From: an uncultured Gammaproteobacteria bacterium
GTDB lineage: Bacteria; Pseudomonadota; Gammaproteobacteria; Competibacterales; JAHEDQ01
Assembly (NCBI GenBank): GCA_963783675.1
Contig: CAWAOU010000016.1
Coordinates: 98,478-162,477 of the forward strand
Direction: 5' to 3'
Length of the DNA: 64,000 nt
Below, piece by piece: positions 1,503-20,511 of this stretch. Position numbers and translations under genes: made by a program. How positions within the stretch are numbered: the stretch's first letter is position 1; every line of letters begins with the position of its first letter. Under the pieces are notes generated by a model. The model did not search any database. It was given only the letters and a program-made list of their open reading frames with translations, and was not told where the DNA came from.

Positions 1503-4500
1503 CTAAGGCCGCGGCTGCCCCTCACTGAGATTGCGGTAGTAGGACTCAACCATCAGCCGTTGGTGGCGTCCCGGCTCGGCCCGGCTATCGGCCGACACGG
1601 TGCTGGCGCCGGCGGACACGCCCTCTCGCAAAGCCCGTTCACTGGCTTTGATCTGGGCCAGCAAGGCATCGTGGCGGCGCATCAGCGCTTCGGGATCCGC
1701 CGACGAACCCGCCTCCCTTTGCGCCTGCAGGGCGTTGATCACAGCCTGAATATCCTGGGCAAGATCCGGTGCCGGCGGAAAGGTCTCGAGCAGTTCACCC
1801 AGATCCTCCACCTGGCGCCCCAGTTCAGCATCGATGTCGGCCAGTTCGGCGGTGCCCAGGTCTGCCCCGGTCCCCGCGCTGCGGCCGATGGCGCCCGCGC
1901 GAAGCCGGTTCCGATTGGCCTGCAGACCCCGTATCGCCCCGCGCATGCGCTCGAGGGCGCGGCCCAGGCGGGCCTCCCCGCTTTCGCCGATGGTCTCGCC
2001 CGCCACCGCGAGGCGCTCGCCCAGACGCTGCAATTCGCGCTCGATATCCGCTTCGCCGCGCTGCACCAGTCCCTCTGGATCTTCCATCATGCGGCGCTGG
2101 GCGGCGCCGATGCGCTCTGCCAACGCAGACGTCCGCATTTCCTCGGCGGCTTCACGCAAAGCCTTGGAGGTCGCAGGCTGGTCGGCCTCGGCAGAGGCCG
2201 CGATACGATCCAGATCGGCTTCCAGCGCCCGCATCTGTTCGGACAAGGCGCCTTTCCGCCGGGCCAGCCTGGACACCGCATTTCCATCGGCCGGATCGTT
2301 CCTCAGGGTCGACTCCAATTCCCGCGTGATCGTCTGCTGCTCTGCCGAGGCAGACGCGGCCCGCTGCTGCGCATCACCCACCTCCCGAGACAGTCGGGCC
2401 GGCCGCTCACCTTCCAGGGCGCTGCGCGCCTGATTGATCCGGTCCAGGGCGGTCTCGCTGGCATCGGCCGCCTCGCCCCCCTGGCCTTGACCGGATCGAC
2501 GCATGGCCTGGGCCGCGGATTGCAGCTGTTCCATTGAACGACGCAAGGCTTCGCTGTCGCGCTTTCGGCTCAGCCGCTCGAGCTGTCGTACCAGTTCCTC
2601 CAGCTCTTCGGCCAATGCCTGTTGACTGTCACCCGCCCCAGCCCCTTGCTGCATGCGGCGCCGGGCGCGCTCCACTTCGGTCTGCTGGCGTTGGGCCAGC
2701 TCCCGCAGCTTGCGCATGGTCTCGTCGAGCTGGTTTCGTTCAGCATTCCAGCGCCCACGCTGCACGTCCTCATACGGGTTTCGGAACTTGTCCATCTCCA
2801 GTTGAAACAGATTGGCCAGTTCGTTGGCGGACTCACCACCCCCACCCCCCGCGCTGCCCATCGCCACCTGGACATCGCGGAAAGCGGCATCGGCCCGCTG
2901 AAGGTGGCCCAGTGCGGCGCGTGCCTGGGGCAGGGCCTGCTGCACATCGGCGACCGACAGCAGTGCCTCAACCTCCTTCATGGCCTTGACCGCCTGCGGC
3001 AATGCGTCCGCCACCTCACGGTAACCCGGCCGGAGATTGACCATGCTGCGTGCGCCCAGGCGCCGGGCAATAGCCTCGGCTCGCACCCGAATGCGGGACT
3101 GGGCCGATTCCAGGGTATCCAGCCTGTCATCCGCCAGAGCCGGGGCCAGGGTGGTCTGATCGCGGCTGAGTTTGAACATGGCCACCACCAGAGCGCGCTG
3201 CTGAGCGGTGAGGGCTTGCTGCCCCTGACCACCCCCGCCCCCGCCCGCGCCGCCGGCGCCACCGGCTGAGCGGAAATGTTGTTCAAAGGGGCGAACATCC
3301 ATAAAGAATATGTCGGTGACCGCCTGGCGATCGCCATCGCCCCGCGTGTCGCGGGCTCGGGCGTAGTAAGCAATCAGATCGCCCGGCACCAGAGGCCGCT
3401 GCTCCAGATACATGAGATGGGTACCGCTGACCTGCTCCTGTCCCAACTCCCCGGTGGCGAGCGGCATCACCTCCTCGGGCCCGCCGTTCACCGACAGCAC
3501 CAGCTCCAGAGCCTGCACCGCGACATCGTCTTCGGCGCTGACCCGGATCTCCATTTCCTCAACCCGGGTCACCCGAGTGTCGCGTCCTGGACTGGAAAGA
3601 CGGATGACGGGCAAAGCGTCGGCATGGGCCACGATCAAATACTCTGGTGTGGCCGGGACCATGCCCAGGGTGCCGGCTGGCAATTCCACCCGATAGTGAC
3701 CGCTTTGGCGAATGTCCAGGCTGCCCCGAAGACGGTCTCCCACCCACGTCAAAGGTACTTCCGTCTCTCCGTCCAACAACAGGCGCCCGCCGGAAACCGG
3801 GTGATCCGGGATCACCTCGACGTCCACCCGACTGCCTTCCACCGTCCGTATATCGGTGCCGTTCTCTACCCGCTCCGGCGGTCGCCCGGTTCCGCTGGGA
3901 TATTGATACAGAAAGTCGATGCGGCTGACCTGGGGACGTGGAATCACGTCGATGCGATGCACCGGCGATCGAAGCTCGGCAGCTTCCACGTAGTATTCCT
4001 GGGCCGTGTCCAGGTCAAACAAAAAGAGTTCGTACGCCCCGTCGGCGGAGGTGGCGCCCATGGGTGTGCGTACCCACTCGGACTCGCCGGTGCCGCGGCT
4101 GGCCAGAACCACCAACTCCGGGGCGAAACCCGCCACCGTCGCCTCGACAAGCTGGTCCGCGCCCTGCAAAACCACCGCATCCCCAGGCGCCACGGCGACC
4201 GAGTACGGGTTTGCGGAGACCGATTCGCTGGCGGGCACGAGCAGCAAACGGATGCCGTGACGCAGTTTGTCGGGCCCCACAGCCACCAGCAGGCCCGCGA
4301 TAACGGCAATCAGAATAAGCATCAATGCCGCCCGCCGTTGGGCGGTCTGTTCCAGATCGGCAACGCCATGGGCACCGGTACCGGTTTCAACCGCGTTGCT
4401 CAGCAGGCGCTGGGCCAAAGCGGGCGATATGTCTCCCGGTTCAGAGGACGCTGGATACGGCGTGCCGGAAAACTGCGCCGCGCTGAGGAGCAGGGCGTCG

Positions 4501-4817
4501 AGTCCCGGAATCCGCCGCTCCACATAGCGAGCAAGCCTGGCATCCGGCATCCGTGCGAACAGCCGGAAAGGCAGGATCACGATCAGCAGCGCCGCCACCA
4601 AAGCGTAAACCGCCCAGCGGACTCGCGACACGATCATGGGATCGAAACGGGCGGCGTCCATGATCAGCACACCGCAGAGTGCCACCAGAAGACAAAGACC
4701 CAAGGCTATGGCGGCGCCTTCCGTGACCCGACGTATCCGAAGGCGACGACGTACACCGGACATGAGGTCAGCGAATGCGCTTTGGCTGCGGGTCCACTGG
4801 ATGACCGGATCGTTCAT
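1503..4817 (-). CDS. large membrane protein, DUF4175-like; terminal gene of the MoxR operon
   Basis: 1104-aa ORF. It has N-terminal hydrophobic helices (AAIALGLCLLVALCGVLIM; AVYALVAALLIVILPF), Gly-rich linkers (GGAGGAGGGGGGQGQQ; SAGGGGGES) and a long Q/E/R/A-rich, coiled-coil-like C-terminal half. Its start overlaps the upstream stop (ATGA at 4814-4817). Confidence 0.75.
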   Translation of the reverse strand: MNDPVIQWTRSQSAFADLMSGVRRRLRIRRVTEGAAIALGLCLLVALCGVLIMDAARFDPMIVSRVRWAVYALVAALLIVILPFRLFARMPDARLARYVERRIPGLDALLLSAAQFSGTPYPASSEPGDISPALAQRLLSNAVETGTGAHGVADLEQTAQRRAALMLILIAVIAGLLVAVGPDKLRHGIRLLLVPASESVSANPYSVAVAPGDAVVLQGADQLVEATVAGFAPELVVLASRGTGESEWVRTPMGATSADGAYELFLFDLDTAQEYYVEAAELRSPVHRIDVIPRPQVSRIDFLYQYPSGTGRPPERVENGTDIRTVEGSRVDVEVIPDHPVSGGRLLLDGETEVPLTWVGDRLRGSLDIRQSGHYRVELPAGTLGMVPATPEYLIVAHADALPVIRLSSPGRDTRVTRVEEMEIRVSAEDDVAVQALELVLSVNGGPEEVMPLATGELGQEQVSGTHLMYLEQRPLVPGDLIAYYARARDTRGDGDRQAVTDIFFMDVRPFEQHFRSAGGAGGAGGGGGGQGQQALTAQQRALVVAMFKLSRDQTTLAPALADDRLDTLESAQSRIRVRAEAIARRLGARSMVNLRPGYREVADALPQAVKAMKEVEALLSVADVQQALPQARAALGHLQRADAAFRDVQVAMGSAGGGGGESANELANLFQLEMDKFRNPYEDVQRGRWNAERNQLDETMRKLRELAQRQQTEVERARRRMQQGAGAGDSQQALAEELEELVRQLERLSRKRDSEALRRSMEQLQSAAQAMRRSGQGQGGEAADASETALDRINQARSALEGERPARLSREVGDAQQRAASASAEQQTITRELESTLRNDPADGNAVSRLARRKGALSEQMRALEADLDRIAASAEADQPATSKALREAAEEMRTSALAERIGAAQRRMMEDPEGLVQRGEADIERELQRLGERLAVAGETIGESGEARLGRALERMRGAIRGLQANRNRLRAGAIGRSAGTGADLGTAELADIDAELGRQVEDLGELLETFPPAPDLAQDIQAVINALQAQREAGSSADPEALMRRHDALLAQIKASERALREGVSAGASTVSADSRAEPGRHQRLMVESYYRNLSEGQPRP

Positions 4818-6916
4818 GGTGCCGCCCCCGTTCGATTCGCGGCGGACGCCGGTTCCGGCAAACGTCCCCGCCCCACCGACAGTCGGTTTGAAATGCCACT
4901 CTCCAGCAGCAGCAGTGCCAGCGCCACCGCCAGCAAGTAGAGCCCAACAGGCGATTCCGCGTCGGGTTCGGGCCCGGTAGCCTGCGCGGATGCGGTGATG
5001 GACCGCCGCGCCACCCGCCGCACCAGATCGGCGGCATCCAGTGGCTCGAACATCGATTCGGATCGGTCCGCGTTGACCGCGATACGCAAGGCCGGAGCGA
5101 CCCCGTCGGCCCGGTGGGCTTCGTAAATTCCGGCCTCGGCGATCGGTAACAGTGCCTGCCCGGCACGCAGCCGACGTGCGCCCCCCTCTGGCATCTCAAC
5201 AACCACCTGACCCTGTTCAGCGAGGTAACTCAGCCAGTCGGCGGCCCCGGGTGTGATAACGGCGTGGGCGCGAAGATCCGCCACCGAACCGGACCGATAA
5301 GCCCCAGGCACTTGGGTCCAGTTTGCCAACCATCGCACTGCGGCCTGCAGCAAAGGGGGAAAGCCCGGTTCCAAGGGCAAGCTGTTCCAACCGGTATCCA
5401 GCGCGCTGGTCAACACCATGGCGCGTCCCGCGCCGTGTTCCCGGCCTGCCAACAGAGGCGCACCGTCCTCGAGACGTAACGGGACCTGATCGGGCGTGGT
5501 CGCCTGCAAGGACCGGTAGGCCCAGACCCGCACCCCGTCCAGGGCGGCGCCCATGTCCCCGGCAAAGGCAGACGCGATGGCCCCGCCAGCTTCGTCCGCG
5601 AGCACACCCAGGCCTTCCGCGTCGGCCGAGCGCCGAGGTCCGAGCTGCCCAGGCAGGTAATCCGGCCAGGCCGAGCCGGCATCCCGCGCCGCCACCACCA
5701 GCAGGCCGCCGCCACCGGTAACGAAAGCGGACAATGCTTCGGCCGCGGGCCCGGTCGGCAGCGAAACAGCATTCCAGATGATCACCTGGGTATCAGACAA
5801 TGCAGCCGGATTGAGCGCACCGGGACTGAGCCGCCGCAGGCTCACCTCCGGCGACCGGGCCAAGCGCAAGGCCTCCGATATATACAGTCCACCCGCCGTG
5901 ACCGGCTCAGCCGCTTCGATCAACGCGACTCGCAGGGCGCGCCTGGACGGTAGAATCAGATTGTGGGTGTTGTCCGCGGCCACCGCGTCGGCCCCAAGTC
6001 TCAACCGCACATCAAGCGGCTGATCCCGAGCGACGGAAAGGGGCAGAACCACGGTTTGCGACCCGCCAACCGCCAGTTCGAGGGTGCGGCTTTCAACCCG
6101 GCGGCCATCCAACTCCAGACTCAGCTCACCGGCTTGAAGCGCGGCGTCACCGGTGTTGCGAACCACCACCTCCAGATCCGTGCCAAGGTCGCTGGGAAGA
6201 CTCGCCGAATTCACCAATCGGGCCGACATGATGGCCGCGTTGGCACCCACTGGACCGGTTACCGGGACGACCTCGAGCGTCACCTCCGGGTCCAGGGACA
6301 GCGCACCAAGATCGCTGGCGCCGCTGGTCTGCAGATCGGAGATCAGTACGAGCGTTCCGGTGCGGGCGGACCCCTCGTTCAGGGCACGCCCGGCTTCCGC
6401 CAACCCGGCGCCAAAACGGGTGCCGTTGGAACCGGGCTGCACCGTGTCCAGGGCGCTGCGCAGGGCCACGGCATCCCCGGTCAGCGCCTGCACCACTTCC
6501 GCCCGATCATCGAACGCCACCAACGCGGCCCGCTGTCCTGGCTCCAAACTGTCTACCCGATCCAGTACCGCCTGCCGGGCCGCGTTCCAATGCCCGTCCG
6601 CGGACATGCTATAGGATCGATCCAGTACCAGCACCAGGTCCGACTCGCTGCTTGCAGCCGGCGCGGCCGCACGTTCCAGATAGGGTGCTGCAAACCCCAG
6701 TACCAGCAGAGCCAGGGCCAGGCAGCGCAACAGCAGCAGCCAGGGATCGCGCAAGGTCCGATGCCGCCGGGCCTGAAACGGTATCTGGCGAAGAAACATG
6801 AGAGACGGGAAACGCCGCCCGTCACGTTCCTGCCGCTGTGCCAGATGCACCATCACCGGCACCGCCAGTGCGGACAAACCCAGCAGCAGGAGCGGATTGA
6901 ACAAACCCCAACCCAT
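4814..6916 (-). CDS. BatA-like membrane protein (aerotolerance-regulator N-terminal TM module + VWA domain)
   Basis: 700-aa ORF. The N-terminus MGWGLFNPLLLLGLSALAVPVMVHLAQRQ...FPSLMFL is typical of BatA_N. The VWA-type motifs DLVLVLDRSYSM and GTLVLISDLQTSG are present. Its start overlaps the DUF58 stop by 1 nt (TGATG). Confidence 0.85.
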   Translation of the reverse strand: MGWGLFNPLLLLGLSALAVPVMVHLAQRQERDGRRFPSLMFLRQIPFQARRHRTLRDPWLLLLRCLALALLVLGFAAPYLERAAAPAASSESDLVLVLDRSYSMSADGHWNAARQAVLDRVDSLEPGQRAALVAFDDRAEVVQALTGDAVALRSALDTVQPGSNGTRFGAGLAEAGRALNEGSARTGTLVLISDLQTSGASDLGALSLDPEVTLEVVPVTGPVGANAAIMSARLVNSASLPSDLGTDLEVVVRNTGDAALQAGELSLELDGRRVESRTLELAVGGSQTVVLPLSVARDQPLDVRLRLGADAVAADNTHNLILPSRRALRVALIEAAEPVTAGGLYISEALRLARSPEVSLRRLSPGALNPAALSDTQVIIWNAVSLPTGPAAEALSAFVTGGGGLLVVAARDAGSAWPDYLPGQLGPRRSADAEGLGVLADEAGGAIASAFAGDMGAALDGVRVWAYRSLQATTPDQVPLRLEDGAPLLAGREHGAGRAMVLTSALDTGWNSLPLEPGFPPLLQAAVRWLANWTQVPGAYRSGSVADLRAHAVITPGAADWLSYLAEQGQVVVEMPEGGARRLRAGQALLPIAEAGIYEAHRADGVAPALRIAVNADRSESMFEPLDAADLVRRVARRSITASAQATGPEPDAESPVGLYLLAVALALLLLESGISNRLSVGRGRLPEPASAANRTGAAP

Positions 6917-7839
6917 CAGCGCGTTCGCACCAGGCGCGCCCGCTGGGACAGGTACTGGAACAACATACTGTCCAACGGCTGGTCGGTGTACAGGCAGGCG
7001 AAATCGATGTGTCGTTCGCCGCAGGCGCGGCTCAACGCCTGCACATGTTCCGCCAGCGCACTGCGATACTCGTTGCCCACCACGGCCGTGGCCACCGGCA
7101 GACGCTGCCCGGTTTCCATATCCTCCAACACCAGTTCACCCGGGAGATTCAGATCACGCTCCACCGGGTCCAACACCTGCAGGGCGAGCAGATCGTGTCC
7201 CCGAGCCCGGAGCCGATCCAATGCTTTGATCACGTCATTCGGTGGTGCGTAAAAATCCGACACCACGACAACGATGCCACGGCGGCCGAGGCGTTCGCCA
7301 AGGTCGTCCAGGGCAGCGATCAATTCACCCGGGCCTTCCGCCCGGGCCCGGGCGAGATGCCGCAGCAGGCTATCCCGGCGTCGGGCCGAGGGCGGGACCC
7401 AATCGCGCAGGGCGTTGTCGATCACGACAAGACCGACGCGGTCGCGCTGGCGGGCGGCCAAATGCGCCAGGCTGGCCAAAATGTAACGGGCATAGTCAAA
7501 CTTGGACACCGTCCCACTGGCATAGTCCATAGACGCGGATGCATCCAAGACCAGGGTCACATCCGCATTGGTTTCCGTCTCGAAAGTCTTGATATAGAGG
7601 CGGTCGGTGCGGGCAAACAAACGCCAGTCCATGTGACGCACGTCATCGCCACGGGTATAGGGGCGATGTTCGGCAAAATCGGTGGCGGCGCCCATTTTTT
7701 TGGCCCGATGCAAGCCGCTGATGAACCCGTCCACCACGGTCTTGGCCACCAGGTCCAGATTGCCAATGCGGGCCAGCATGGCGGGATCGATGAACCGCTC
7801 GGCGGCGGTTCGACCGGCATTCGCCGTCGCGGCGTTCAA
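6916..7839 (-). CDS. DUF58 domain protein (MoxR-associated, VWA-like)
   Basis: 307-aa ORF containing FAEHRPYTRGDDVRHMDWRLFARTDRLYIKTFETE and VTLVLDASASM, the hallmark DUF58 strings. It has a 4-nt overlap with the moxR-like gene. Confidence 0.85.
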   Translation of the reverse strand: MNAATANAGRTAAERFIDPAMLARIGNLDLVAKTVVDGFISGLHRAKKMGAATDFAEHRPYTRGDDVRHMDWRLFARTDRLYIKTFETETNADVTLVLDASASMDYASGTVSKFDYARYILASLAHLAARQRDRVGLVVIDNALRDWVPPSARRRDSLLRHLARARAEGPGELIAALDDLGERLGRRGIVVVVSDFYAPPNDVIKALDRLRARGHDLLALQVLDPVERDLNLPGELVLEDMETGQRLPVATAVVGNEYRSALAEHVQALSRACGERHIDFACLYTDQPLDSMLFQYLSQRARLVRTR

Positions 7840-8876
7840 CGATCCGCGGTGGGCACGGGCACCGCCTCCAACAGCTGGTCGATGATGTCATCGACGCTCA
7901 CCCGTTCTGACTCCGCATGAAAATTGCGCAACAGACGGTGACGGAGCACCGGGCGAACCAGGGCGCGAACATCCTCAAACCCCACATGGGCGCGGCCGCG
8001 TAGCAATGCCCGCGCCTTGCCCCCCAGTACCAGAAACTGGGCGGCGCGCACGCTGGCCCCATAGGACAGCCAGCGATTGGCAAAGTCGGTGGCCTGTTCG
8101 GTGCCGGGTCGGGTGGCGCGCACCAGCGCCAGGGCATGACGGCTGACCTCGTCAGCGATCGGCACACGACGAACCAGCCGCTGATACGCCAGCAGGGCCG
8201 AGGCGGTGATGGCCGGCGTCAGGGTGGGCTTGGCGTTGCTGGTGGTGGCCTGAACCACTGCGAGTTCATCGTCTTCAGGCAGGTAGTCCAGAAGGATCTC
8301 GAAGGTGAAACGGTCGAGCTGGGCCTCGGGCAACGGATAAGTCCCTTCCAACTCGATGGGGTTCTGGGTGGCAAACACAAAAAACGGGCTGGGCAACGGG
8401 TAGGTCTTGCCCTGAACCGTGACCCGCCGTTCCTGCATGGCCTCCAGCAGCGCGGCCTGGGTCTTCGGCGGTGTGCGGTTGATCTCATCTGCCAAGACCA
8501 TGTTGGCAAACACCGGCCCGTTGACGAACACAAGCTCGCGCCGTCCGGTATCGGGATCCTGCTGAACCAGGTCGGTGCCGGTGATGTCCGAGGGCATCAG
8601 GTCCGGGGTGAACTGGATGCGGGAAAAATCCAGATCCAAAGCCTCGGCGACGGTCTGTACCAGCAGCGTCTTGGCCAGACCCGGCACCCCAACCAGCAGG
8701 CTGTTGCCCCCCACCAGCAGGGTCGTCATCACCAGATCCACCACCTCGTCCTGGCCGACGATGCGCTTGCCGATTTCCGCCAGTATCCGTCGATGATCCT
8801 GCTGCAGCGCCTCGGCCTGCCCGGCATCATCGCTGGGTATCGCTTCGGGGCGATTCGGCTGGGGTTCAGAACTCAC
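7836..8876 (-). CDS. MoxR-family AAA+ ATPase
   Basis: 346-aa ORF with Walker A GVPGLAKT and Walker B VLADEINRTPPKTQAALLEAMQE. Length and C-terminal lid region are typical of MoxR/RavA-like ATPases. Confidence 0.95.
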   Translation of the reverse strand: MSSEPQPNRPEAIPSDDAGQAEALQQDHRRILAEIGKRIVGQDEVVDLVMTTLLVGGNSLLVGVPGLAKTLLVQTVAEALDLDFSRIQFTPDLMPSDITGTDLVQQDPDTGRRELVFVNGPVFANMVLADEINRTPPKTQAALLEAMQERRVTVQGKTYPLPSPFFVFATQNPIELEGTYPLPEAQLDRFTFEILLDYLPEDDELAVVQATTSNAKPTLTPAITASALLAYQRLVRRVPIADEVSRHALALVRATRPGTEQATDFANRWLSYGASVRAAQFLVLGGKARALLRGRAHVGFEDVRALVRPVLRHRLLRNFHAESERVSVDDIIDQLLEAVPVPTADR

Positions 8877-11479
8877 TGGGTCTCTCCTCGGACAGAGTCA
8901 TGTTGGATTGCGTCGGTTGCCGGATCGCCGGACGTGGGGGCGTCGGTGGACGCTTCGACGTCCATACGGTCGCGTATCTGTAGCAGCAGTTCCAAAGCTT
9001 CCGGGTACAGCGGCGCTTGCTCGAGCGCGGCCAGCACCTGCCGTCGAGCATCGGGGGTGTCGCCCGCGCGAAACAAAGCCTCGGCGTGACGATAGCGGGT
9101 CCCCAAGGGATCAGCCGGGTCCAGATCACCCACCGCGCCCCAGGCCTGAGCGGCGCCGCGCCAATCGCCTGCGGCGGACCGCAGTTCCGCCAAGGTCTCG
9201 TACAACGCACGATCAAAGGGTTGAATCAACAAGGCCCGTTCCAGCATGGCCCGGGCACGGTCGGCCTGACCGGTTTTTTCATACAGGGCTGCCAGATCAA
9301 GGTGGGCGTCCAGGTCGTCGGCGTCGATGGCAACGGCCAGTTCCAATTGTTCGATGGCACGATCGAATGCCTGCTGCCGGGTATACAGCGTCGCCAGAAG
9401 GCGATAGCTGCTGTCGGGCCCGGTGTGCTCCGGGAAAAGGTCCTGGGCATGCCTGAGACGTGCCTCCGCCAGGGGCGTGTCATCGGCCTCGACCGCCTCA
9501 CGCCCTTCCACCATCAGTTGGGCATATTGCCCGGACTGAACGGCGGCGGAATCCTCATCCGAACCCAGAGCCGAAAGAATGGGCGCATAGCGGGACCGCA
9601 GATACGCATCAAAGGTCTGGTCCAGGCGCTCACTCGAGAGTCCCAACACTTCCGGCAACAGTTGCTCGGTGGTCCGCCCCCAGCGATAACCGGACAACAG
9701 CCTTGCGATGGCTTCGAACCCATAACTCTGTTCAATCCAGTCCATCAGCAAAGCGCCCTGGGTGTAACCGTACAACATCTGCTCCGGAAAGCTGGGCCGG
9801 ACAAAGGCATCATTCAGCGCGCTGGCGACGGGCAGCCGCCCCTGCTGGAAAGCGGTCAGAAATCCCAGGCTGACGTCTGCGCCCCAGCCGGGTTGCGCCC
9901 TGTGTTCTTCATGTACGGACAAGCCTTCGGTGAACCAGCGTGGTACCCGTGACCGGGTCATGTCCAGATGGAAGGTATGCGCCAGTTCATGCCACAACAC
10001 GGACCCCAGGTTGAAAGCGCCGGGAGGCCGGGCCGAAGGGGAGTCCAGCACCACCACAGGTCCGAACGACACCCCAAGCAGATCGAGTCCCACCAGGCCG
10101 ACTGTGCGCACCGAAAAATCCTCATGGCGGGAGTACACCTCGATCCGGATCGGTGTCGCCGGTTGGTACCGGTAACGCTCCGCCAGGGTGTCGTATGCGC
10201 GTTCGGCGATCGGCAACAGCATCGGTGCCAGGATCGACATTTCGCGGCGGTCGGCCACCAGAATAAAACGCTCCGATTCAACCGTCTCGTACTGGTCCAT
10301 CCGATCCAGCAGATCCAGCGTGTTCTTGGTCCTCACATCAAACGGGTCGCCCCGAAACGCCACCTCGAGACTCCGCCGGCCCTGGTCAACGGCGCCGAGG
10401 CGCATCCGGTTCATACCCAGCAAGGCATGGGCGCGCCAGGCAGACGGCTGACGTCCCAGTGCCCGCACCGCGTACATGACTGCGTCGCGATAGCGTCGAT
10501 TCTGAGCTGCGATCTCGGCCAAGGTCACGTAGGCCTCGTGTTCGCCCGGGGCGATCTGGTCGATCTGCTCCACCAGCGCGGCGGAACGGTTGCCCGCACC
10601 TCGCAGAAAATGAAGCGCCGCAGCGATGGTCAGCGCCTCGGGCGACCTGGGATTGATGCGCAGTGCTTCGGCCACTTCTTGCTGAGCCTGGGAATAATCT
10701 TCCAGCTCAAGCAGGAGGCGGGCGGCAAGAACCCGTGCCGCCACCGAATGAGGCGCCACCTCCAATGCCCGTCTGGCAGCATCGATGGCACTGCGGGAAT
10801 GGTCAAAATGCTGACTGCGGGCCAGTCCAAGCAGGGCGGGCGGATAGTCCGGCTCGATTTCAAGCGCCTCGCGATAGGCATCCAGCGCCTCGGTGTTGTT
10901 ATAGCGGTCCAGCAGCAGGTCGCCCAGAGCGACCCGCGGCGCGGGATCCTCGGGCGACCGCTGCACGGCCTCTTCGTAGATATCCAGCGCTGTGGCGTAG
11001 AGCGATGCGTCCAATGGCGCCAACGCCAGGGCCGCATCGCCGACCGCCACCAACTGCGGCGCCGACAGCCCGCCGGTGGAAGACCGGTAGTCGGCCAGCA
11101 CCGACTCCAGACGCGCCGTGGCGCCATCTGAGTCGCCAAGACGGCGCTGCAGTCGGGCCGAAGCCACCTGAGCCAAGATGCGCCACTCCGAGTCGATGGC
11201 CGCGGCCTTCGAATAGGCCCCGAGAGCGGTTTCATAGGACCCGATGGCACTGTCGGCCTCACCCAGCAGATACCAAAGCCGACCCTGCTCCGGCTGGGCG
11301 ACGGCAGCGCCGGTTCCCAGCTGCGTCCGAACCGCGTCGGCCGCGTCCTTGTAGCGGCCCGCTTCCAGCAGATCACGCACCGGCACATCGGTATCACCCA
11401 TCGCGTGCAAGGGCCAACACAGCCATAGCGCCGAAAAAATCGCCGCCGCCATGGCGCGTCTCACGGTACCTCGACTCAT
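8873..11479 (-). CDS. secreted TPR-repeat protein with a central Peptidase_MA-like HExxH module
   Basis: 868-aa ORF with a signal-like N-terminus (AAAIFSALWLCWPLHAMG). It contains many A/L/Y-rich TPR-like repeats. The motif VLWHELAHTFH...PRWFTEGLSVHEE gives HExxH plus a downstream E, a gluzincin-type arrangement. Confidence 0.8.
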   Translation of the reverse strand: MSRGTVRRAMAAAIFSALWLCWPLHAMGDTDVPVRDLLEAGRYKDAADAVRTQLGTGAAVAQPEQGRLWYLLGEADSAIGSYETALGAYSKAAAIDSEWRILAQVASARLQRRLGDSDGATARLESVLADYRSSTGGLSAPQLVAVGDAALALAPLDASLYATALDIYEEAVQRSPEDPAPRVALGDLLLDRYNNTEALDAYREALEIEPDYPPALLGLARSQHFDHSRSAIDAARRALEVAPHSVAARVLAARLLLELEDYSQAQQEVAEALRINPRSPEALTIAAALHFLRGAGNRSAALVEQIDQIAPGEHEAYVTLAEIAAQNRRYRDAVMYAVRALGRQPSAWRAHALLGMNRMRLGAVDQGRRSLEVAFRGDPFDVRTKNTLDLLDRMDQYETVESERFILVADRREMSILAPMLLPIAERAYDTLAERYRYQPATPIRIEVYSRHEDFSVRTVGLVGLDLLGVSFGPVVVLDSPSARPPGAFNLGSVLWHELAHTFHLDMTRSRVPRWFTEGLSVHEEHRAQPGWGADVSLGFLTAFQQGRLPVASALNDAFVRPSFPEQMLYGYTQGALLMDWIEQSYGFEAIARLLSGYRWGRTTEQLLPEVLGLSSERLDQTFDAYLRSRYAPILSALGSDEDSAAVQSGQYAQLMVEGREAVEADDTPLAEARLRHAQDLFPEHTGPDSSYRLLATLYTRQQAFDRAIEQLELAVAIDADDLDAHLDLAALYEKTGQADRARAMLERALLIQPFDRALYETLAELRSAAGDWRGAAQAWGAVGDLDPADPLGTRYRHAEALFRAGDTPDARRQVLAALEQAPLYPEALELLLQIRDRMDVEASTDAPTSGDPATDAIQHDSVRGETQ

Positions 11480-12501
11480 GGCAGACGCCCCTGACGATGG
11501 GCTCGGCGATTGAGCGCCAGTTCCACCAACAGCGCCTCCAGACGTGTCTCGTAGTCGGATTGCGCCAGGCCGAGTTTGCGCCGTTTCAAACCTTCGATTC
11601 GGTCAACCAACCGCCGCGCCTCCACCTGCAGGGCCAGGCTGGCCCGACCCTGGGCCGTGGACGGATCCCCCGTGTCCGCCGCGGCCAGGTAAAAGCGCCC
11701 GGCCAACGAACCGTCTGCCGCAGCGGCACCGGGTTCCCGGCTTCCGATGCCGTCACCGTTGTCGTCGAGCTGTGCATGTTCGCTGAGCAGGCGATGGTCC
11801 AACCGGTAGGCGCGATCCACTTCCCGTCGGGCATAGTCGAACGCCTCCAGCAGTGAGACCCGCTCATCCTTGTCCGCGTCGGCACCGGGCTCGGCGAAGG
11901 CATCGACGAAATGCGCCGCAAACAGGGTGTGCTGATTCTCTGCGCCGCCGGAGGTGGCGGCGATGACCACTCGATTGGGGGCCGAAAGGTATTGAACGAA
12001 TGCACCGCTACTGGGTGTGGTGTTGACCACCGCCAATGTCCGGTCGGACAGGCGCCCCAGCGCGTCGGCGAGTTCCTTGGCCGAGAGATCCGGCCCAGGC
12101 ACATTGAACAGCACCCGGTCGCCCCGCGCGGTGCCATGCCCGATCAGGACAATCATCACCCGGTCACCTGGCCTTGAGCGGGCCGCAATACGCTCAACGG
12201 CGGCCAGAACTGTGGCTTTATCCGATACCCCGGCGATGACCCCCGGCGCCCGATCCATGCGCTCGCCCAGGTAGACCACGTGCTCCCGAGCAAACCCCAG
12301 GTGCTCGGTGGCCACCTGTGTCAGGGTGGCGGCCCACCGGTGAAACAGATCGCCGTAGTAGTCCTCACCGCCTACGCCGGTGATCACCAGCAGGTGGGTT
12401 TGCGGCCGTTCCTGAGCGACCACTGCTGGGCCCGCGCAGATCAGGACCAGGCTGAGCAAACCGGCAGCCATTCCGACGGTTGAGCGACAATAACCGCTCA
12501 T
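11476..12501 (-). CDS. legumain (peptidase C13)-fold protein lacking the catalytic Cys
   Basis: The ORF track starts it at 12582. I prefer the ATG at 12501..12499, which forms an ATGA overlap with the upstream stop and gives a signal-like N-terminus (MSGYCRSTVGMAAGLLSLVLICAGPAVVAQ). VMIVLIGHGTARGDRVLF...DLSAKEL...LAVVNTTPSSGAF...VVIAATSGGAENQ aligns by eye to the legumain His-Gly and Cys blocks. There is no Cys after the signal peptide. Confidence 0.6.
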   Translation of the reverse strand: MSGYCRSTVGMAAGLLSLVLICAGPAVVAQERPQTHLLVITGVGGEDYYGDLFHRWAATLTQVATEHLGFAREHVVYLGERMDRAPGVIAGVSDKATVLAAVERIAARSRPGDRVMIVLIGHGTARGDRVLFNVPGPDLSAKELADALGRLSDRTLAVVNTTPSSGAFVQYLSAPNRVVIAATSGGAENQHTLFAAHFVDAFAEPGADADKDERVSLLEAFDYARREVDRAYRLDHRLLSEHAQLDDNGDGIGSREPGAAAADGSLAGRFYLAAADTGDPSTAQGRASLALQVEARRLVDRIEGLKRRKLGLAQSDYETRLEALLVELALNRRAHRQGRLP

Positions 12502-14750
12502 GCTAAGGCACACCGTCTGCGGTAAACCCATTCCGCGCAGGCGAGACCCAGCAGCAACAGCAGCAGCAAAGGCATGTCCCACACCGGCAGGCGATCACGC
12601 ACCGGCCGGGTGGCCAGGGTTTCGTCGATGCCCTCCACCAATGAGCCGGCGTCGTCCGCGGGGTAGTAGCGCCCGCCGGTGCGCTGAGCGATGCCCGCGA
12701 GCGCCCGGTCGTTGAACGCGCCGTTCCAGAATTCATCTCCATCGGGGCTGACATCAACGTACGAGCGCGCCGCGGGCACCGAGTTGTCCAGCGCGCCAAC
12801 CACCCACTCGTATCGGCCTATTTCGTTCATCGGCGCAGCGACCGTGTAGACACCCGTCTCATCGGCGCTGGGCACCAGAGGATACCGGCTGACGCGTCCC
12901 AGAGGATCGGTCAGAGTTGCCTCCAGATCGGCGCCGTCCAGGGGAAGATAGCGTTCGTCCCGAGCCACCACCACCAGGTCGACGGACTCCCCCGGCACCG
13001 CCCTGGACGGGCCGGCCTCAACCTCGATACGGGCCGCGGCGGGTCGGGCAAGGCCACGCAGCAGATGTCGCCAAAAAGTTTCATGGGTGTGGTCGGTCAA
13101 CGGCATATCGACCTGCATTTGCCAGCGCCAGGTGTTCTGCACCGCCAGCGCGGCGCTGGTGCCCCGGCCGTAGCGCTGGGTGGCCAGTAGAACCAGCGGC
13201 TCACCGGCCTGATCCAGCCCCTCGAGCAGCACCGTCGCACCGGGCTTGGCGGCCCGCAGCGGGTTGACCACGGTCAGTGGGGGTAGCCGATCCCAGGGTT
13301 CGGCGCCCGATTCAGAGCCGATGCTCAACAATACGTCACGCAGGCCCGCCGGGGTCGGCCGCACCCGCACCTGCTGTCGAAACCCAGTGGCGTCGGTGGA
13401 CAACACCACCGGCATCACCCCGGCCAGCGCAGTCGAGCCATGTCCGCCTTCGGCAAAGGCGTGCCGGCCGCCAAGAAACAATACACCGCCCCCGCGCCGC
13501 TCCACGAATGCGCGGATAGCCGCCTGCTGATCGACGCTGAGCAACGCTGCCTCCACGCTGCCGATGACCAGTGCATCGTACCGAAACAGCTCAGACTCGT
13601 CGGAGGGAAATCCCTGAGCCAATTCGGAGCCATCTTCCACCCCGAGGCGGTAGTATTTGTTCTCGGCGGTACGCACCAGGGAAACCAGCCGGATATTGTC
13701 GTCCTCTGATACCGCGCGGCGGAGGAACTTGACCTCGAAGCGCGGCTCACCTTCGAAATGGAGTACGTTAATCGGTTGGTCCCGGACTTCGACCGTTCTT
13801 TGCAGCCGATTATTTTCGCTAACGATTTCCTCTGAAAGAACATCGGCGCGGAACACGACCTCCCTCGGGCCCGGGGTGTCCAAAATCAACGGCAGCGACA
13901 CCCGAAACCGTTCCCGGTCGGCCGGCAGCACCAGGTTTTGTTCGTGCACGATGGCGCTGTCCACCTCGACCACCAAACGTGCCTGACGTCCCGCCAAACC
14001 CTGATGGCGCAACAGCAGCGTCGCCTCGAGGGCATCGCCGCGAAGCACGGAATCGGGCAGACGGACCTCATCCAGCTGCAGATCGGTTCCGGCCCGGGTC
14101 TCACCCACACCCACCGTGTGGACGGCCACCCCGGCGGCGCGCATTTCAAACAGAGCGCGCTCCAACTCGGGACCGGATTGGAAACCCCCGTCGGAAACCA
14201 GCACCACGGCTGAGACCGGCCGCGCGGTCACCCCGCGCAGCAGTCGGGTGAGCCCCGCCGCAAGATCGCTGCGGGCGCCGGAGAAGCTCAAATCAGTCCC
14301 CGCCGGCAGGTCCTCAACACGATCCGAGAAGCCCAGATAGCGTACGTCGTAGCGCGTCTCCAACGCGGCCGACACGCGGCCCGTACCGGGTGCGAAATCC
14401 TGCATCGCCTGGTCTGCACGGGTGTTCCCGCCGCCCCCGGGAAGGTTCATGCTGAGGGAGTCGTCCAGCAGAACCGCAACCGATCCCGGCACAGGCTGCT
14501 CGGTCTCTACCACAACAGTGGGCCGCAGCAGCACCAACAGCAAAAGACCGAGCAGGGCGGTGCGCAGCCCCCACAGCACGGCCCGATCCGAGCGCCCGAG
14601 TCGCGCCCCGAAATGGGCATAGCCCAGGACCCAGGCCACCATTACAGCCAATATACCCACGGCCAGAACATAGCCCCAGGCGGGCCAGGCGAGTTCCCAC
14701 GCGCCCCGCCAGAGCACATCGGGATCGTACTTGAACAACCATTCCAGCAC
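12498..14750 (-). CDS. membrane protein with a VWA-like domain and a class-I glutamine-amidotransferase-like domain (BatB-like)
   Basis: 750-aa ORF with N-terminal TM helices. VWA-like strings are GSVAVLLDDSLSM and VSAVVLVSDGGFQSG. The stretch RYDALVIGSVEAALLSVDQQAAIRAFVERRGGGVLFLGG resembles a GATase1-like module. Confidence 0.75.
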   Translation of the reverse strand: MLEWLFKYDPDVLWRGAWELAWPAWGYVLAVGILAVMVAWVLGYAHFGARLGRSDRAVLWGLRTALLGLLLLVLLRPTVVVETEQPVPGSVAVLLDDSLSMNLPGGGGNTRADQAMQDFAPGTGRVSAALETRYDVRYLGFSDRVEDLPAGTDLSFSGARSDLAAGLTRLLRGVTARPVSAVVLVSDGGFQSGPELERALFEMRAAGVAVHTVGVGETRAGTDLQLDEVRLPDSVLRGDALEATLLLRHQGLAGRQARLVVEVDSAIVHEQNLVLPADRERFRVSLPLILDTPGPREVVFRADVLSEEIVSENNRLQRTVEVRDQPINVLHFEGEPRFEVKFLRRAVSEDDNIRLVSLVRTAENKYYRLGVEDGSELAQGFPSDESELFRYDALVIGSVEAALLSVDQQAAIRAFVERRGGGVLFLGGRHAFAEGGHGSTALAGVMPVVLSTDATGFRQQVRVRPTPAGLRDVLLSIGSESGAEPWDRLPPLTVVNPLRAAKPGATVLLEGLDQAGEPLVLLATQRYGRGTSAALAVQNTWRWQMQVDMPLTDHTHETFWRHLLRGLARPAAARIEVEAGPSRAVPGESVDLVVVARDERYLPLDGADLEATLTDPLGRVSRYPLVPSADETGVYTVAAPMNEIGRYEWVVGALDNSVPAARSYVDVSPDGDEFWNGAFNDRALAGIAQRTGGRYYPADDAGSLVEGIDETLATRPVRDRLPVWDMPLLLLLLLGLACAEWVYRRRCALA

Positions 14751-14764
14751 CGTGTGGGCCGCTC

Positions 14765-15526
14765 TCAGTAGCTCATGGCATAGACCACAAAATTGATCCC
14801 GATCTCATAGGCATAGGTGGAGTAGCGAAGTGGGTAATAGGGCACATCCGCCCACTCCCAGGCGTCGCCCAGATCCGTGTTCCAGTTAATCAGAACCATG
14901 AGCCGCCCGTGTTCGTCGAAGATACCTCGAACATGGGGTACGCGCCCGTCGAACTCATGGGTCGGCCCTCCGGACGCCTGATGGACATTTGGCACCTGAA
15001 GAATCGTGTCGATGTCGTAAAAAGCGTGGTAGACCGGATGATCCAGAGGCACATCGACGATACGGTACTCGGGAAACACAACGCGCATTTGACGCTCGAA
15101 CGTGGTCCAGGCCCAGGATCCCCAGAAATCGTCGATGACCAGAAAACCTCCGGCCAATAGATATTCACGCAGAGACTTCGCCTGGTCGGCATCCATGGAC
15201 AGGGAGTCCACTTCCACCATGTAGAGCAGTGGAAAATCCCGGAGCGCGGGGTCATCGATGCTGAGCGCGTGATGGGACTCGAAGGCGTCCACCAAGGTTA
15301 AACGCCTCAGCGCAACCAGGAACTGCTCGTCGGCCTTGGGGAAATCGACCGCCCACCGAGGTCCCCAGTCATCGCCGCTGCCGCCATCCATTCCGTAGAT
15401 TCCGCGGGTGAAGTAGAACTCGTGATCCAACAGTTGGGCCGATGTCCCGTCCGCCTGCGCCGATGCACCCAGGGGCATCGCAATAAGCGACAGGGCGGCG
15501 AGCAATCGAGACAGGCGTATTCTCAT
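14765..15526 (-). CDS. DUF4159 domain protein (secreted); first gene of the MoxR operon
   Basis: I prefer the start at ATG 15526 (MRIRLSRLLAALSLIAMPLGASAQA, with GGGGA about 8 nt upstream). FPLLYMVEVDSLSMDADQAKSLREYLLAGGFLVIDDFWG matches the DUF4159 pattern as I remember it. Confidence 0.75.
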   Translation of the reverse strand: MRIRLSRLLAALSLIAMPLGASAQADGTSAQLLDHEFYFTRGIYGMDGGSGDDWGPRWAVDFPKADEQFLVALRRLTLVDAFESHHALSIDDPALRDFPLLYMVEVDSLSMDADQAKSLREYLLAGGFLVIDDFWGSWAWTTFERQMRVVFPEYRIVDVPLDHPVYHAFYDIDTILQVPNVHQASGGPTHEFDGRVPHVRGIFDEHGRLMVLINWNTDLGDAWEWADVPYYPLRYSTYAYEIGINFVVYAMSY

Positions 15527-15669
15527 GAGACGATCCCCGCGGGCCTGTGACTGGTGCATGGATTCAATCCGATCCGCTCGCCAAGTATGCGCCAGAGTGC
15601 CCTCAAGCCCATGGCCCGAGGTGAGCGAACAGGGCCGCTATCTTATTGACCCAAAGGGCGGCACCGGGT

Positions 15670-16236
15670 TCAGTTCCCGTTCAGCGGCCGCATCACCAGT
15701 TCCACACCCCCCAACAACACCGGGGAACCCTCCATATGAACTTCCTCCAATGACACCGCCAGATCATCGTGGGCGGCTTCATCCAGATACGGATCACCCT
15801 TGAACAGGATGCGGGTGGGAAGCGGCGCATAGTCTGGGTGCATAACGACCACGTGTATGTGCTTTGCGCCCCAGTACTGCCCCGGCAGGGCCGTGGTCAA
15901 CCGGAAACCACCGTCTTCACCACTCTGGAAGGTCGCCCGGTAGCGGTCATCGTGATACGCACCGGCGCCATCGGCCTGCCAGACCTGTAGCTGTGCGCCG
16001 GCAATGGGTTGTCCCGTGCTGGCCAGCACCCGCCCCCTCAGGTGCAAACGCTGACCCGGATCGCCGGGTGCCCACAAGCGGGTTGTCGCCTGAGCGTCGG
16101 ATGAATACTCGGGCCCGAGCGCCGTCTCGGGGGTGGGCTCCAGCGACTGTTGAGCCGCCGACGCGTTCCAGGCAAGACAAAAAATGATCAGTCCCATGTG
16201 CAGGCGCAGTCCAACGGGCAAACGGGTCATGTGCAT
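15670..16236 (-). CDS. intradiol ring-cleavage dioxygenase-like protein (secreted)
   Basis: 188-aa ORF with a signal-like N-terminus. LHLRGRVLASTGQPIAGAQLQVWQADGAGAYHDDRY and GAKHIHVVV...TRILFKGDPYL resemble the intradiol dioxygenase core. Confidence 0.7.
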   Translation of the reverse strand: MHMTRLPVGLRLHMGLIIFCLAWNASAAQQSLEPTPETALGPEYSSDAQATTRLWAPGDPGQRLHLRGRVLASTGQPIAGAQLQVWQADGAGAYHDDRYRATFQSGEDGGFRLTTALPGQYWGAKHIHVVVMHPDYAPLPTRILFKGDPYLDEAAHDDLAVSLEEVHMEGSPVLLGGVELVMRPLNGN

Positions 16237-16490
16237 ACTGGAATCTCCGAATCTGTGGTATGCGAGTGGCCGTCCCGCGCACGAGTACCATACCTGGCCA
16301 GTACGGGCGGCGTGTCAGCGCTTTGGCGATACTCAATTCATCAATATAGATCGTGACGGGTGAATCCGGTGCCCCCAATTACAAGATCGCAACATTGGAC
16401 AGCACCTGCCCATGGTCTATACCCATAGTTGAGGAAAGCGCTGTCCAGCGCGCGGTCGCGCCGGCGTCTTCAGGGAGCATGGAGAGAACG

Positions 16491-17477
16491 ATGAGCCTGC
16501 ATGACCTTGCCCACGACCCACTGCTGGTTCGAATACTGACCCATCCGGATCACGATTCCGACCTCTGGCGTAAAGATTTCGGGCGATTCATGCAAGGCGA
16601 TTTATCCTTGACCCGGCGTTCCGCCAGTGAGTCGGCGGTGATCGCCATACAACGTCTTATGATCTTTCTGGGTCACTCCACCGCCTCCAGCGGTGCTTTT
16701 TCCGTGGACGGCGACTTTGGCCGCGGCACCAACCGTGGAATCGCACAATTTCGGCTGGAGCACGGTCTCAGCACAGCCATCAGCAGGAGCCAGTTGTGCT
16801 ACCCCTGCCGATGGAACACGGCGAGAAATCTGATTGCCTCGGTACCGGAGGCCCGGCTGACCCCGGCGGTACTTGAGGCCATGGCGAACGAGGCCCTCAA
16901 ACGGTGCGAGTCCGGCCACATCATGGCCGGTGATGTGGAAGATGCGCTGTTTCATCTGAACGCACTGCAAAAACGCCAGTTTCTGACGTGCCGGAACATT
17001 GCAGAGCGCTACGCCGAAGACGCGCGCAGGGCCTGTGACCGGGTGCAGGAACAGAGTGGGGTCAAGGTGCTGCCGATCTGGGTGCTGTCCATCATTCGGC
17101 AGGAAACCGCCGGGGTCATGCGACCCCGCTTCGAACAGCATTATCTGACCCGGCTCAACGGCCGGAACCCAAACTCCGATCTGAGCGAAATCCGGATGCA
17201 GTCCATGAGCCTCGGACTGGGTCAGATCATGGGCGCCAATTACAAGCAGGTGGGCGCCGAGAGCGCCCATGAACTGTTCACCGCACCCAGTGATCAGCAG
17301 ATCGAATTCGTCGCTCGTTTTCTCAAACCCCGCGCCGACACCGTGGCCCGAAGCCATCCAACGGAAGCGGATTTCAGACGCGTTTCCAGGTTCTACAACG
17401 GCCCGAAGTATGAGGCGCACCACTACCACGAATCCCTGGCACGGTGGTTCAGTGAGTATCGCTCACTGGGGGTTTGA
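16491..17477 (+). CDS. peptidoglycan-binding domain + N-acetylmuramidase (DUF3380-type) protein
   Basis: The frame is open from 16353. I prefer the ATG at 16491, with GGAGA 5 nt upstream. AIQRLMIFLGHSTASSGAFSVDGDFGRGTNRGIAQFRLEHGL looks like PG_binding_1. RVSRFYNGPKYEAHHYHESLARWF looks like the muramidase C-terminal signature. Confidence 0.75.
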   Translation: MSLHDLAHDPLLVRILTHPDHDSDLWRKDFGRFMQGDLSLTRRSASESAVIAIQRLMIFLGHSTASSGAFSVDGDFGRGTNRGIAQFRLEHGLSTAISRSQLCYPCRWNTARNLIASVPEARLTPAVLEAMANEALKRCESGHIMAGDVEDALFHLNALQKRQFLTCRNIAERYAEDARRACDRVQEQSGVKVLPIWVLSIIRQETAGVMRPRFEQHYLTRLNGRNPNSDLSEIRMQSMSLGLGQIMGANYKQVGAESAHELFTAPSDQQIEFVARFLKPRADTVARSHPTEADFRRVSRFYNGPKYEAHHYHESLARWFSEYRSLGV

Positions 17478-19257: not shown

Positions 19258-19281
19258 GCCGGTCGGCTGCCCCCGGTCCGA

Positions 19282-20430: not shown

Positions 20431-20511
20431 GGTCGGTATCTCCCGTTCATGGGTGGTTGCTGCGGTGGCATGGTCGCACACCGGTGGATGTATCTCTGGG
20501 CGCCGGTCCGA

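Follow-up and report, generated by a model that had tools for sequence, protein, structure and literature searches.

A MoxR/DUF58/VWA gene cluster with a TPR-embedded gluzincin and a legumain-fold protein lacking the catalytic cysteine in an uncultured gammaproteobacterium

Gene organization of the cluster

The DNA considered here is a stretch of 64,000 nucleotides (nt) from an uncultured Gammaproteobacteria bacterium (contig CAWAOU010000016.1, positions 98,478 to 162,477), hereafter referred to as the window. Listing and translation of its open reading frames (ORFs) revealed eight consecutive minus-strand genes at 1503–15559 that form a tightly packed operon. They are denoted G1 to G8 in the direction of transcription and encode a DUF4159 protein (G1), a membrane protein with von Willebrand factor A (VWA) and GATase1-like domains (G2), a legumain-fold protein without catalytic Cys (G3), a gluzincin flanked by tetratricopeptide repeats (TPR; G4), a MoxR ATPase (G5), a DUF58 protein (G6), a BatA_N-VWA membrane protein (G7), and a DUF4175-type giant (G8). 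An initial annotation of the locus had listed the same eight ORFs on the same strand, and all of them were recovered at their positions. The only deviation concerns the start of G1, as the annotated position 15526 is an in-frame alternative ATG and the full ORF extends to 15559. A Pfam check of the eight proteins confirmed the family calls of G1 and G3–G7, whereas those of G2 and G8 hold at the family level only.

Six of the seven gene junctions overlap, as had been claimed. Five are 4-nt overlaps and one is a 1-nt overlap, the latter corresponding to the TGATG at 6916 between G6 and G7; the seventh junction is a 14-nt gap, located between G1 and G2. The 4-nt overlaps had all been read as ATGA, which is correct at 4814, 11476 and 12498, whereas the tetranucleotide is GTGA at 8873 and TTGA at 7836. 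The GTG start of G5 and the TTG start of G6 are plausible because of their positions: the former is the first start codon past the preceding in-frame stop, with the sole later Met inside the AAA domain, and for the latter no other start codon is available ahead of the conserved N-terminal region. The overlapping junctions are beyond chance, since the same coupling recurs across orthologous loci. A 4-nt overlap joins G2 and G3 in 67/81 loci and G3 and G4 in 45/59 loci, and a 1-nt or 4-nt overlap joins G6 and G7 in 43 of the 61 loci compared. A scan for promoters and terminators returned nothing exceeding the shuffled expectation.

Very long versions of "G3" and "G4" obtained in ORF extraction were rejected as upstream open-frame extensions in high-GC DNA, which overlap G2 in another frame. 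Long antisense ORFs are likewise found across the operon (e.g. 3276–4940 and 5963–7252 on the plus strand, and many more) and are typical high-GC artefacts.

A legumain-fold protein without the catalytic cysteine

G3 (11476–12501, minus strand) encodes a secreted protein of the clan-CD (legumain/caspase) fold with a C-terminal helical hairpin. It matches Pfam Peptidase_C13 with 23.5 bits against a cutoff of 22.8. An AlphaFold2 (AF2) model based on 31 homologs was obtained with a predicted local distance difference test score (pLDDT) of 87.5, and a Foldseek comparison of this model with the PDB placed legumains and plant asparaginyl endopeptidases/peptide asparaginyl ligases (AEP/PAL) on top (E ~1e-8, probability 1.0). 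These were followed by PIGK of the glycosylphosphatidylinositol (GPI) transamidase, metacaspases, paracaspase and caspases, with E values of 1e-8 to 1e-6 down to the metacaspases. As judged from the model, the fold is that of clan CD. The G3 profile can also be aligned with metacaspases as far as the catalytic GHG, which in the window lies at nt 12133–12141. Gly121-His122 is invariant in 119 homologs, and G-H-(G/A) is invariant in these as well as in 82 genomic loci.

In clan-CD enzymes an Ala-Cys pair follows the fourth beta-strand. The equivalent stretch of G3 reads TTPSS (nt 12007–12021); positions 161–164 are occupied by A, T, S, P or G in 119/119 homologs and never by Cys, and no Cys occurs within residues 155–170 in any of the 82 loci. 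The equivalent of Asn42 is presumably absent as well, being apparently a Gly in a hand alignment to human legumain. Judging from these alignments, G3 cannot be a canonical cysteine peptidase. Still, S165, T183, E188, E241-H242 and an LDD(N/D)GDGxG(S/T) loop (nt 11740–11769) are invariant, so that the protein is under strong constraint at a polar site. The initial annotation had described G3 as a legumain fold without its nucleophile, which agrees with both the AF2/Foldseek result and the absence of Cys in the homologs and loci.

Compared to legumain, PIGK and the metacaspases, G3 shares the fold and carries the His-Gly of the dyad at the same strand-loop position. It differs in the replacement of the catalytic Cys by Ala, Thr, Ser or Pro in all of ~200 sequences, and in the addition of an invariant TEHAxLDD(N/D)GDG loop and the C-terminal helical hairpin. 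The Cys-less clan-CD family defined here comprises at least 2,000 sequences; annotation pipelines sometimes name its members "C13 family peptidase", a designation that is probably misleading.

A TPR protein with an embedded gluzincin site

G4 (8873–11479, minus strand) encodes a secreted protein in which TPR families flank a Peptidase_MA_2 domain (33.9 bits, cutoff 32.4). The HELAH motif (aa 497–501, nt 9977–9991) is followed by WFTEG (nt 9923–9937), and HExxH is retained in 57 of 58 orthologs. The third zinc-ligand Glu (E518), located in a W[FLVY]xEG motif 16 residues past HExxH, is likewise kept in 57/58 orthologs and is invariant in the family alignment. This conservation of the zinc site spans orthologs of two phyla, so that the earlier description of an apparently intact gluzincin site is borne out. 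Searches of the PDB with the catalytic domain sequence returned no significant match; a motif-level resemblance to the HExxH...NEG site of the M1 enzyme leukotriene A4 (LTA4) hydrolase (4gaa) was not significant. Based on its motifs, G4 is the only cluster component with an intact canonical hydrolase site, and it is predicted to be a protease.

With the gluzincins of clan MA(E), G4 shares HExxH and the Glu of a downstream W-x-x-E-G, as in M1 enzymes, at a score above the Pfam gathering threshold. It is distinguished from them by the placement of the catalytic domain between two long TPR arrays and by the lack of a sequence-detectable solved relative. Export of G4 via the twin-arginine translocation (Tat) pathway was considered and rejected: the window protein contains an RR pair, yet a twin-arginine motif is not conserved among the orthologs, whose signal peptides are of the ordinary Sec type.

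Two paralogous membrane VWA proteins

G2 (12498–14750, minus strand) is predicted to be an inner-membrane protein with a hairpin of two transmembrane (TM) helices, a VWA domain, an immunoglobulin-like (Ig-like) region, a GATase1-like region and a C-terminal TM helix. The window protein as such gave no VWA or GATase match in Pfam. Among 26 members of its family, GATase1_like was detected in 23, VWA in 13 and Filamin in 13, and the family profile matches the GATase1-like PDB entries 3soz, 2gk3 and 3rht as well as the VWA structure 4cn8. The metal-ion-dependent adhesion site (MIDAS) of G2 includes DDSLS (nt 14451–14465); D96, S98, S100 and D187 are invariant, and the window protein has a Ser where the consensus has Thr.

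G7 (4814–6916, minus strand; 700 aa) combines a BatA_N two-TM hairpin with a VWA domain predicted to be periplasmic, Ig-like and GATase1-like regions, and a C-terminal TM helix. It scores 61.7 bits with Pfam BatA and 60 bits with VWA_2. Its MIDAS is complete (DRSYS, nt 6608–6622), with D99, S101, S103, T166 and D194 invariant. The Arg-rich loop between TM1 and TM2, predicted to be cytoplasmic, contains the invariant residues H24, F36-P-S-L-M-F41 and P46 (FPSLMF, nt 6794–6811), a motif that is missing in G2.

Profile comparison of G2 and G7 shows that they are paralogs over almost their full length (hhalign probability 99.2%, E 8.6e-20, 534 columns). The common architecture comprises the two-TM hairpin, VWA-MIDAS, Ig-like, GATase1-like and again Ig-like regions, and the C-terminal TM helix. 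A hydropathy scan combined with the positive-inside rule suggests 2+1 TM helices and a large periplasmic domain in both proteins. The predicted periplasmic VWA agrees with the topology of the BatA-like protein BB0173, whose VWA domain was experimentally mapped to the periplasm (PMC5700661).

The ATPase module and the DUF4175-type giant

G5 (7836–8876, minus strand) is a MoxR AAA+ ATPase of the MRP type (AAA_3 205.1 bits, AAA_lid_2 54.7 bits) with Walker A GVPGLAKT at nt 8667–8690 and Walker B VLADE at nt 8484–8498. It also matches bpMoxR with 44 bits and shows weak similarity to BchD/ChlD and cobaltochelatase subunits in NCBIfam. G6 (6916–7839, minus strand) is a VWA-like DUF58 protein (DUF58 184 bits, VWA_2 36 bits) with a MIDAS-like DASAS at nt 7531–7545. 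The hydropathy scan identified no TM segment or signal peptide in G5 or G6, and both are predicted to be cytoplasmic. MRP-type genes are recognized by a DUF58 gene directly after moxR, followed by one or more genes for VWA membrane proteins (Snider & Houry 2006, as cited in PMC12067865). The order G5-G6-G7 corresponds to this arrangement in the window and in every locus that is long enough.

G8 (1503–4817, minus strand) encodes an 1104-aa protein with three TM helices and, according to the hydropathy scan and the positive-inside rule, a large periplasmic part. A beta-rich domain (~aa 210–510) and a Gly-rich linker precede a region of ~570 residues, modelled as an almost continuous helix by AF2 from a two-row alignment, with low confidence. 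D92, A96, Y98 and E100 are invariant in the predicted cytoplasmic loop (DARLARYVE, nt 4518–4544). The window protein stays below the cutoff of Pfam DUF4175 (PF13779; 24.6 bits, cutoff 27.3), whereas 15 of 16 orthologs match it (best E 2.4e-16). NCBIfam TIGR02302 matched neither G8 nor 8 relatives. Word-indexed protein searches with G8 gave 1 and 0 matches, which reflects a failure of sensitivity and not absence, as an exhaustive HMMER search with the beta-domain retrieved a family of 5470 cluster representatives. No solved relative was found in a PDB search.

Distribution and conservation of the gene set

A protein search returned at least 2078 homologs of G3, and among genomes sampled at one per species, at least 558 encode a G3 relative. 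The nearest relative is a Candidatus Competibacteraceae metagenome-assembled genome (MAG) with 86% identity. Gene linkage was analysed by tblastn with the eight window proteins in the best 79 loci, comprising ~44 from Gemmatimonadota, ~24 from Acidobacteriota (mostly Vicinamibacterales), 8 from Gammaproteobacteria and 3 unclassified. Because G3 itself served to select these loci, the sample establishes that G3 is always accompanied by the MoxR core, but gives no frequency of MoxR cores without G3.

In 79/79 loci from three phyla, the gene directly preceding G3 is G2, and G5-G6-G7-G8 are found downstream of G3 wherever the contig reaches far enough. Gammaproteobacteria, Gemmatimonadota and some Acidobacteriota carry G4 in the interval that separates G3 from the MoxR block. 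Most Vicinamibacterales are without G4 beside the cluster, and a second, divergent DUF4159 paralog fills this slot directly upstream of moxR. In Gemmatimonadota, G4 and the second paralog are often both present, the latter following G4. The paralog was located at 11015–11803 in locus L033, 11014–11805 in L050, 10942–11733 in L065 and 8594–9415 in L003. L033 and L042 carry a further DUF4159-like ORF past the G8 gene; the window holds the G1-type copy only.

The initial annotation had treated both protease-fold genes as passengers of the operon. For G3 this label is wrong. It adjoins the VWA-GATase gene throughout the sample, no other pair of the cluster is as tightly coupled as G2-G3, and the idea of a lineage-specific hitch-hiker fails. 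G4 is only semi-core given its absence from most Vicinamibacterales.

One metagenomic lineage (L083/L084) shows the order G4-DUF4159-MoxR-DUF58-BatA-DUF4175-G2-G3 and keeps all eight families. That the gene set survived such a rearrangement speaks more strongly for functional linkage than a conserved gene order would by itself. In the same loci, the BatA_N-VWA gene is interrupted by a DDE transposase of the ISAZ013 family (6927–9322) and G2 is apparently split into two frames, so that the cluster may be decaying in this lineage. An apparent G3-TPR fusion (P0096) on the contig of L085 (JGI 3300000983; genes at 2841–4439 and 6224–7151) was dismissed as a likely frameshift, as MoxR is also split in two there.

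In a plasmid collection, relatives of G3 and G8 were found only on the 1.1 Mb megaplasmid or chromid of Gemmatirosa kalamazoonensis (NZ_CP007129.1), a cultured Gemmatimonadetes strain, where they lie ~8 kb apart at about 737–748 kb.

G1, G0 and flanking genes

G1 (14765–15559, minus strand) encodes a secreted DUF4159 protein (PF13709, 152.9 bits, profile positions 9–202 of 202). Its N-terminus is signal-like, and the alternative start at 15526 would give a cleaner signal peptide. DUF4159 belongs to the Glutaminase_I clan, and the clan that unites it with GATase1-like domains has many non-catalytic members (PMC4702930).

A further minus-strand gene, G0 (15670–16236), is located 110 nt upstream of G1 and encodes a secreted 188-aa Dioxygenase_C/CarboxypepD_reg-like protein with an HIH motif (Dioxygenase_C 51.3 bits). 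The gene directly preceding the DUF4159 gene is an ortholog of G0 in 9/9 gammaproteobacterial loci, whereas no locus of Gemmatimonadota or Acidobacteriota has one at this position. G0, which is missing from the initial annotation, possibly belongs to the operon as a ninth gene specific to Gammaproteobacteria. The hydropathy scan suggests signal peptides in G0, G1, G3 and G4.

Next to the cluster, two long ORFs overlap on opposite strands, one at 16353–17477 (plus strand) with an N-acetylmuramidase domain (60 bits) and one at 16602–17429 (minus strand) with no family match. Farther upstream, an apparently unrelated ABC (ATP-binding cassette) importer operon encodes a solute-binding protein (SBP_bac_8) and two BPD_transp_1 permeases (17561–20481, minus strand). 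In a gammaproteobacterial MAG (L001), an M28 peptidase gene (5235–6089, minus strand) is found two genes ahead of the cluster and in opposite orientation to it, and the flank also encodes cytochrome oxidase. No M28 counterpart was detected within the 5 kb that precede the cluster in the window.

Proposed function and alternative explanations

We tentatively favour a trans-envelope system of the MRP-type MoxR/DUF58/VWA kind, composed of two sub-modules and a periplasmic platform, with envelope maintenance as its output; this account could well be right, and it could equally give way to another. It starts from what was observed directly, namely gene content, domain identities, the status of the catalytic motifs, predicted topology, paralogy, and conservation of linkage. 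G5–G8 would represent a generic core of a MoxR hexamer, its DUF58 partner, the BatA_N-VWA protein G7 and the DUF4175 giant G8, while G1–G4, joined by G0 in Gammaproteobacteria, would form a periplasmic add-on. MoxR and DUF58 might dock onto the conserved cytoplasmic loops of G7 (FPSLMF) and G8, and ATP hydrolysis would drive the remodelling or assembly of membrane proteins. Such remodelling could determine how the MIDAS domains of G7 and G2 bind ligands in the periplasm, and these domains together with the long helical G8 may organise the platform. There, G4 would act as the sole canonical protease and G3 as a non-catalytic (or non-canonical) partner in substrate binding or regulation, which is coupled to G2 translationally and probably physically. 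The result would be processing or turnover of envelope proteins, and hence envelope maintenance. This role is suggested by two precedents. The MRP-type operon RL3499–RL3502 of Rhizobium leguminosarum is needed for membrane integrity and morphology, according to the accounts cited in PMC3893208 and PMC5700661. In mycobacteria, moxR1-DUF58-VWA is conserved beside ripA/ripB, and MoxR1 was reported to assist RipA export (PMC12067865).

Several points weigh against this assignment. Every protein–protein contact, the direction of signalling and the substrate are inferred, and the "ATPase-gated proteolytic or adhesion machine" of the initial annotation is an idea at the same level. MoxR and DUF58 reside in the cytoplasm and every candidate client in the periplasm, which leaves the coupling across the membrane a conjecture. 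The topology is a prediction from the hydropathy scan and the positive-inside rule, and confidence in the G8 model is low (pLDDT 44). G4 is missing from most Vicinamibacterales, so that proteolysis by G4 is not a universal output. Finally, G3 may be no mere pseudo-enzyme, as the invariant His and other polar residues are kept. A bolder variant would have the MoxR/DUF58 motor switch the MIDAS domains of the two paralogs between ligand-binding states from the inside out, in the manner of integrin I-domains, thereby gating a periplasmic protease complex in which G3 presents substrates to the TPR-gluzincin or uses a non-canonical nucleophile; we consider this quite unlikely. If true, it would represent a new class of ATP-controlled extracytoplasmic proteolysis among diderm bacteria.

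The absence of a universal G4 and of a nucleophile in G3 would also suit a structural or adhesive scaffold without essential catalysis, in which VWA-MIDAS, Ig-like domains and G8 link the inner membrane either to peptidoglycan or to the outer membrane, the role of MoxR/DUF58 is limited to assembly, and G3 and G4 are structural or vestigial. The helix of ~570 aa in the low-confidence G8 model, the many non-catalytic members of the GATase1-like and DUF4159 clan, and the envelope integrity and morphology phenotype of RL3499–RL3502 are in line with this notion. Conversely, the near-universal HExxH and third-ligand Glu of G4 (57/58) argue for maintained catalysis where G4 is present, and we regard a pure scaffold as plausible but unlikely. 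An improbable further option is a chaperone for cofactor insertion or maturation, similar to CoxD/E, NorQ/D, CbbQ/O or Mg-chelatase, with its client encoded in the cluster; it might, for example, load metal into the Zn peptidase G4 or the Fe-type Dioxygenase_C-like G0, or fold either of them into an export-competent state. Both are putative metalloproteins, the weak resemblance of G5 to BchD/ChlD and cobaltochelatase subunits points in the same direction, and precedents exist in the MoxR family (PMC3893208) as well as in the dependence of RipA export on MoxR1 (PMC12067865). However, the Sec-type signal peptides of the G4 orthologs, with no conserved twin-arginine motif, imply that the membrane is crossed unfolded. 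G0 is restricted to Gammaproteobacteria and most Vicinamibacterales loci are without G4, and three large membrane proteins with periplasmic MIDAS or helical parts would remain unexplained.

An ordinary Bat operon with known members and roles, the extra genes being annotation noise, appears decidedly improbable. MoxR, DUF58, BatA_N-VWA and a TPR protein do constitute the Bat/MRP signature, but the eight proteins contain no Pfam BatD or SH3-type BatE family at E<=0.01 and no BatD-type or SH3-type match in NCBIfam, the sole TPR protein being a peptidase fusion. G7 scores 17.3 bits with the NCBIfam model VWA_BatA_Lepto, far below its cutoff of 380, and carries extra domains. DUF4159, GATase1-like, C13-like, Peptidase_MA_2 and DUF4175 are non-Bat families. 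This gene content argues strongly against a plain Bat operon, and the proposal that the cluster is more than the textbook Bat set is sustained by the five non-Bat families and the absence of BatB–E-type proteins. Work on Leptospira Bat mutants did not demonstrate a specific function (PMC3557215). Least probable by far is a role in phage defence or biological conflict, with the cluster as a MoxR-vWA system whose effectors are the caspase-like protein and the metallopeptidase. Conflict systems that combine MoxR-vWA with proteases as effectors were proposed by Kaur et al. 2020, as cited in PMC12067865, and both the bpMoxR match of G5 (44 bits) and the caspase-like fold of G3 are reminiscent of them. 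Against this, the AAA_3 score of G5 (205 bits) is far above that of bpMoxR, the putative effector G3 is without nucleophile, the non-ATPase components are all envelope-located, and none of nine proteins matches a PADLOC-DB model, which leaves a phage-defence role unsupported. Instead of a patchy distribution, the cluster shows stable synteny across whole phyla, and its flanks are of a housekeeping type (ABC transporter in the window, cytochrome oxidase in L001).

Relation to known systems

MRP-type MoxR/DUF58/VWA operons are, to our knowledge, among the most widespread bacterial clusters without a mechanism, and for the Bat, Rhizobium and mycobacterial operons we know of phenotypes only. The cluster supplies candidate partners for the ATPase module: an apparently active zinc protease, as judged from its motifs, a nucleophile-less legumain fold and two MIDAS paralogs, which are held together across Gammaproteobacteria, Gemmatimonadota and Acidobacteriota. 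This makes the targets of MoxR-VWA envelope systems addressable in the cultured carriers Gemmatimonas, Gemmatirosa and Arhodomonas. The periplasm of diderm bacteria is devoid of ATP. If the favoured trans-envelope system does exert ATP-dependent control of periplasmic proteolysis, it would provide a new route by which diderms pass energy to this ATP-free compartment. Full-text literature on DUF4159, DUF4175, C13 or Peptidase_MA_2 in conjunction with MoxR yielded no description of the cluster; DUF4175 appears there only in connection with the unrelated short Acinetobacter division protein AdvA.

Compared with the Bat operons of Bacteroides, Leptospira (batABD) and Borrelia (bb0170–bb0176), the cluster has in common an MRP-type MoxR followed by DUF58 and then a BatA_N double-TM protein with VWA, plus a TPR protein, and its VWA domain is predicted to be periplasmic like that mapped in BB0173 (PMC5700661). 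It differs in lacking BatB/C/D/E-type proteins and in adding DUF4159, a second, paralogous VWA-GATase1-like protein, the Cys-less C13-fold protein, the TPR-embedded gluzincin and the DUF4175 giant.

The best functional precedent for the G5–G8 core is RL3499–RL3502 (the "broadly conserved operon" of Vanderlinde et al. 2011, J Bacteriol 193:2684), which like the cluster is an MRP-type MoxR operon with membrane proteins. It reportedly consists of four genes and is without C13-like or Peptidase_MA genes. RL3501 and RL3502 are presumably homologous to G7 and G8, going by their annotations.

The mycobacterial moxR1 operon resembles the cluster in pairing MoxR-DUF58-membrane VWA with secreted envelope peptidases. 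There, the peptidases are NlpC/P60 cell-wall hydrolases exported via Tat and neither gluzincins nor members of clan CD, and the operon is without DUF4159, GATase1-like and DUF4175 proteins. In summary, systems of the MoxR-DUF58-VWA kind are known, whereas this composition, the division into two modules, the paralogy of G2 and G7 and the family of Cys-less legumain-fold proteins have apparently not been described before. The cluster would hardly surprise specialists, but it offers a concrete, testable partner set for the long-standing question of MRP-type MoxR function.

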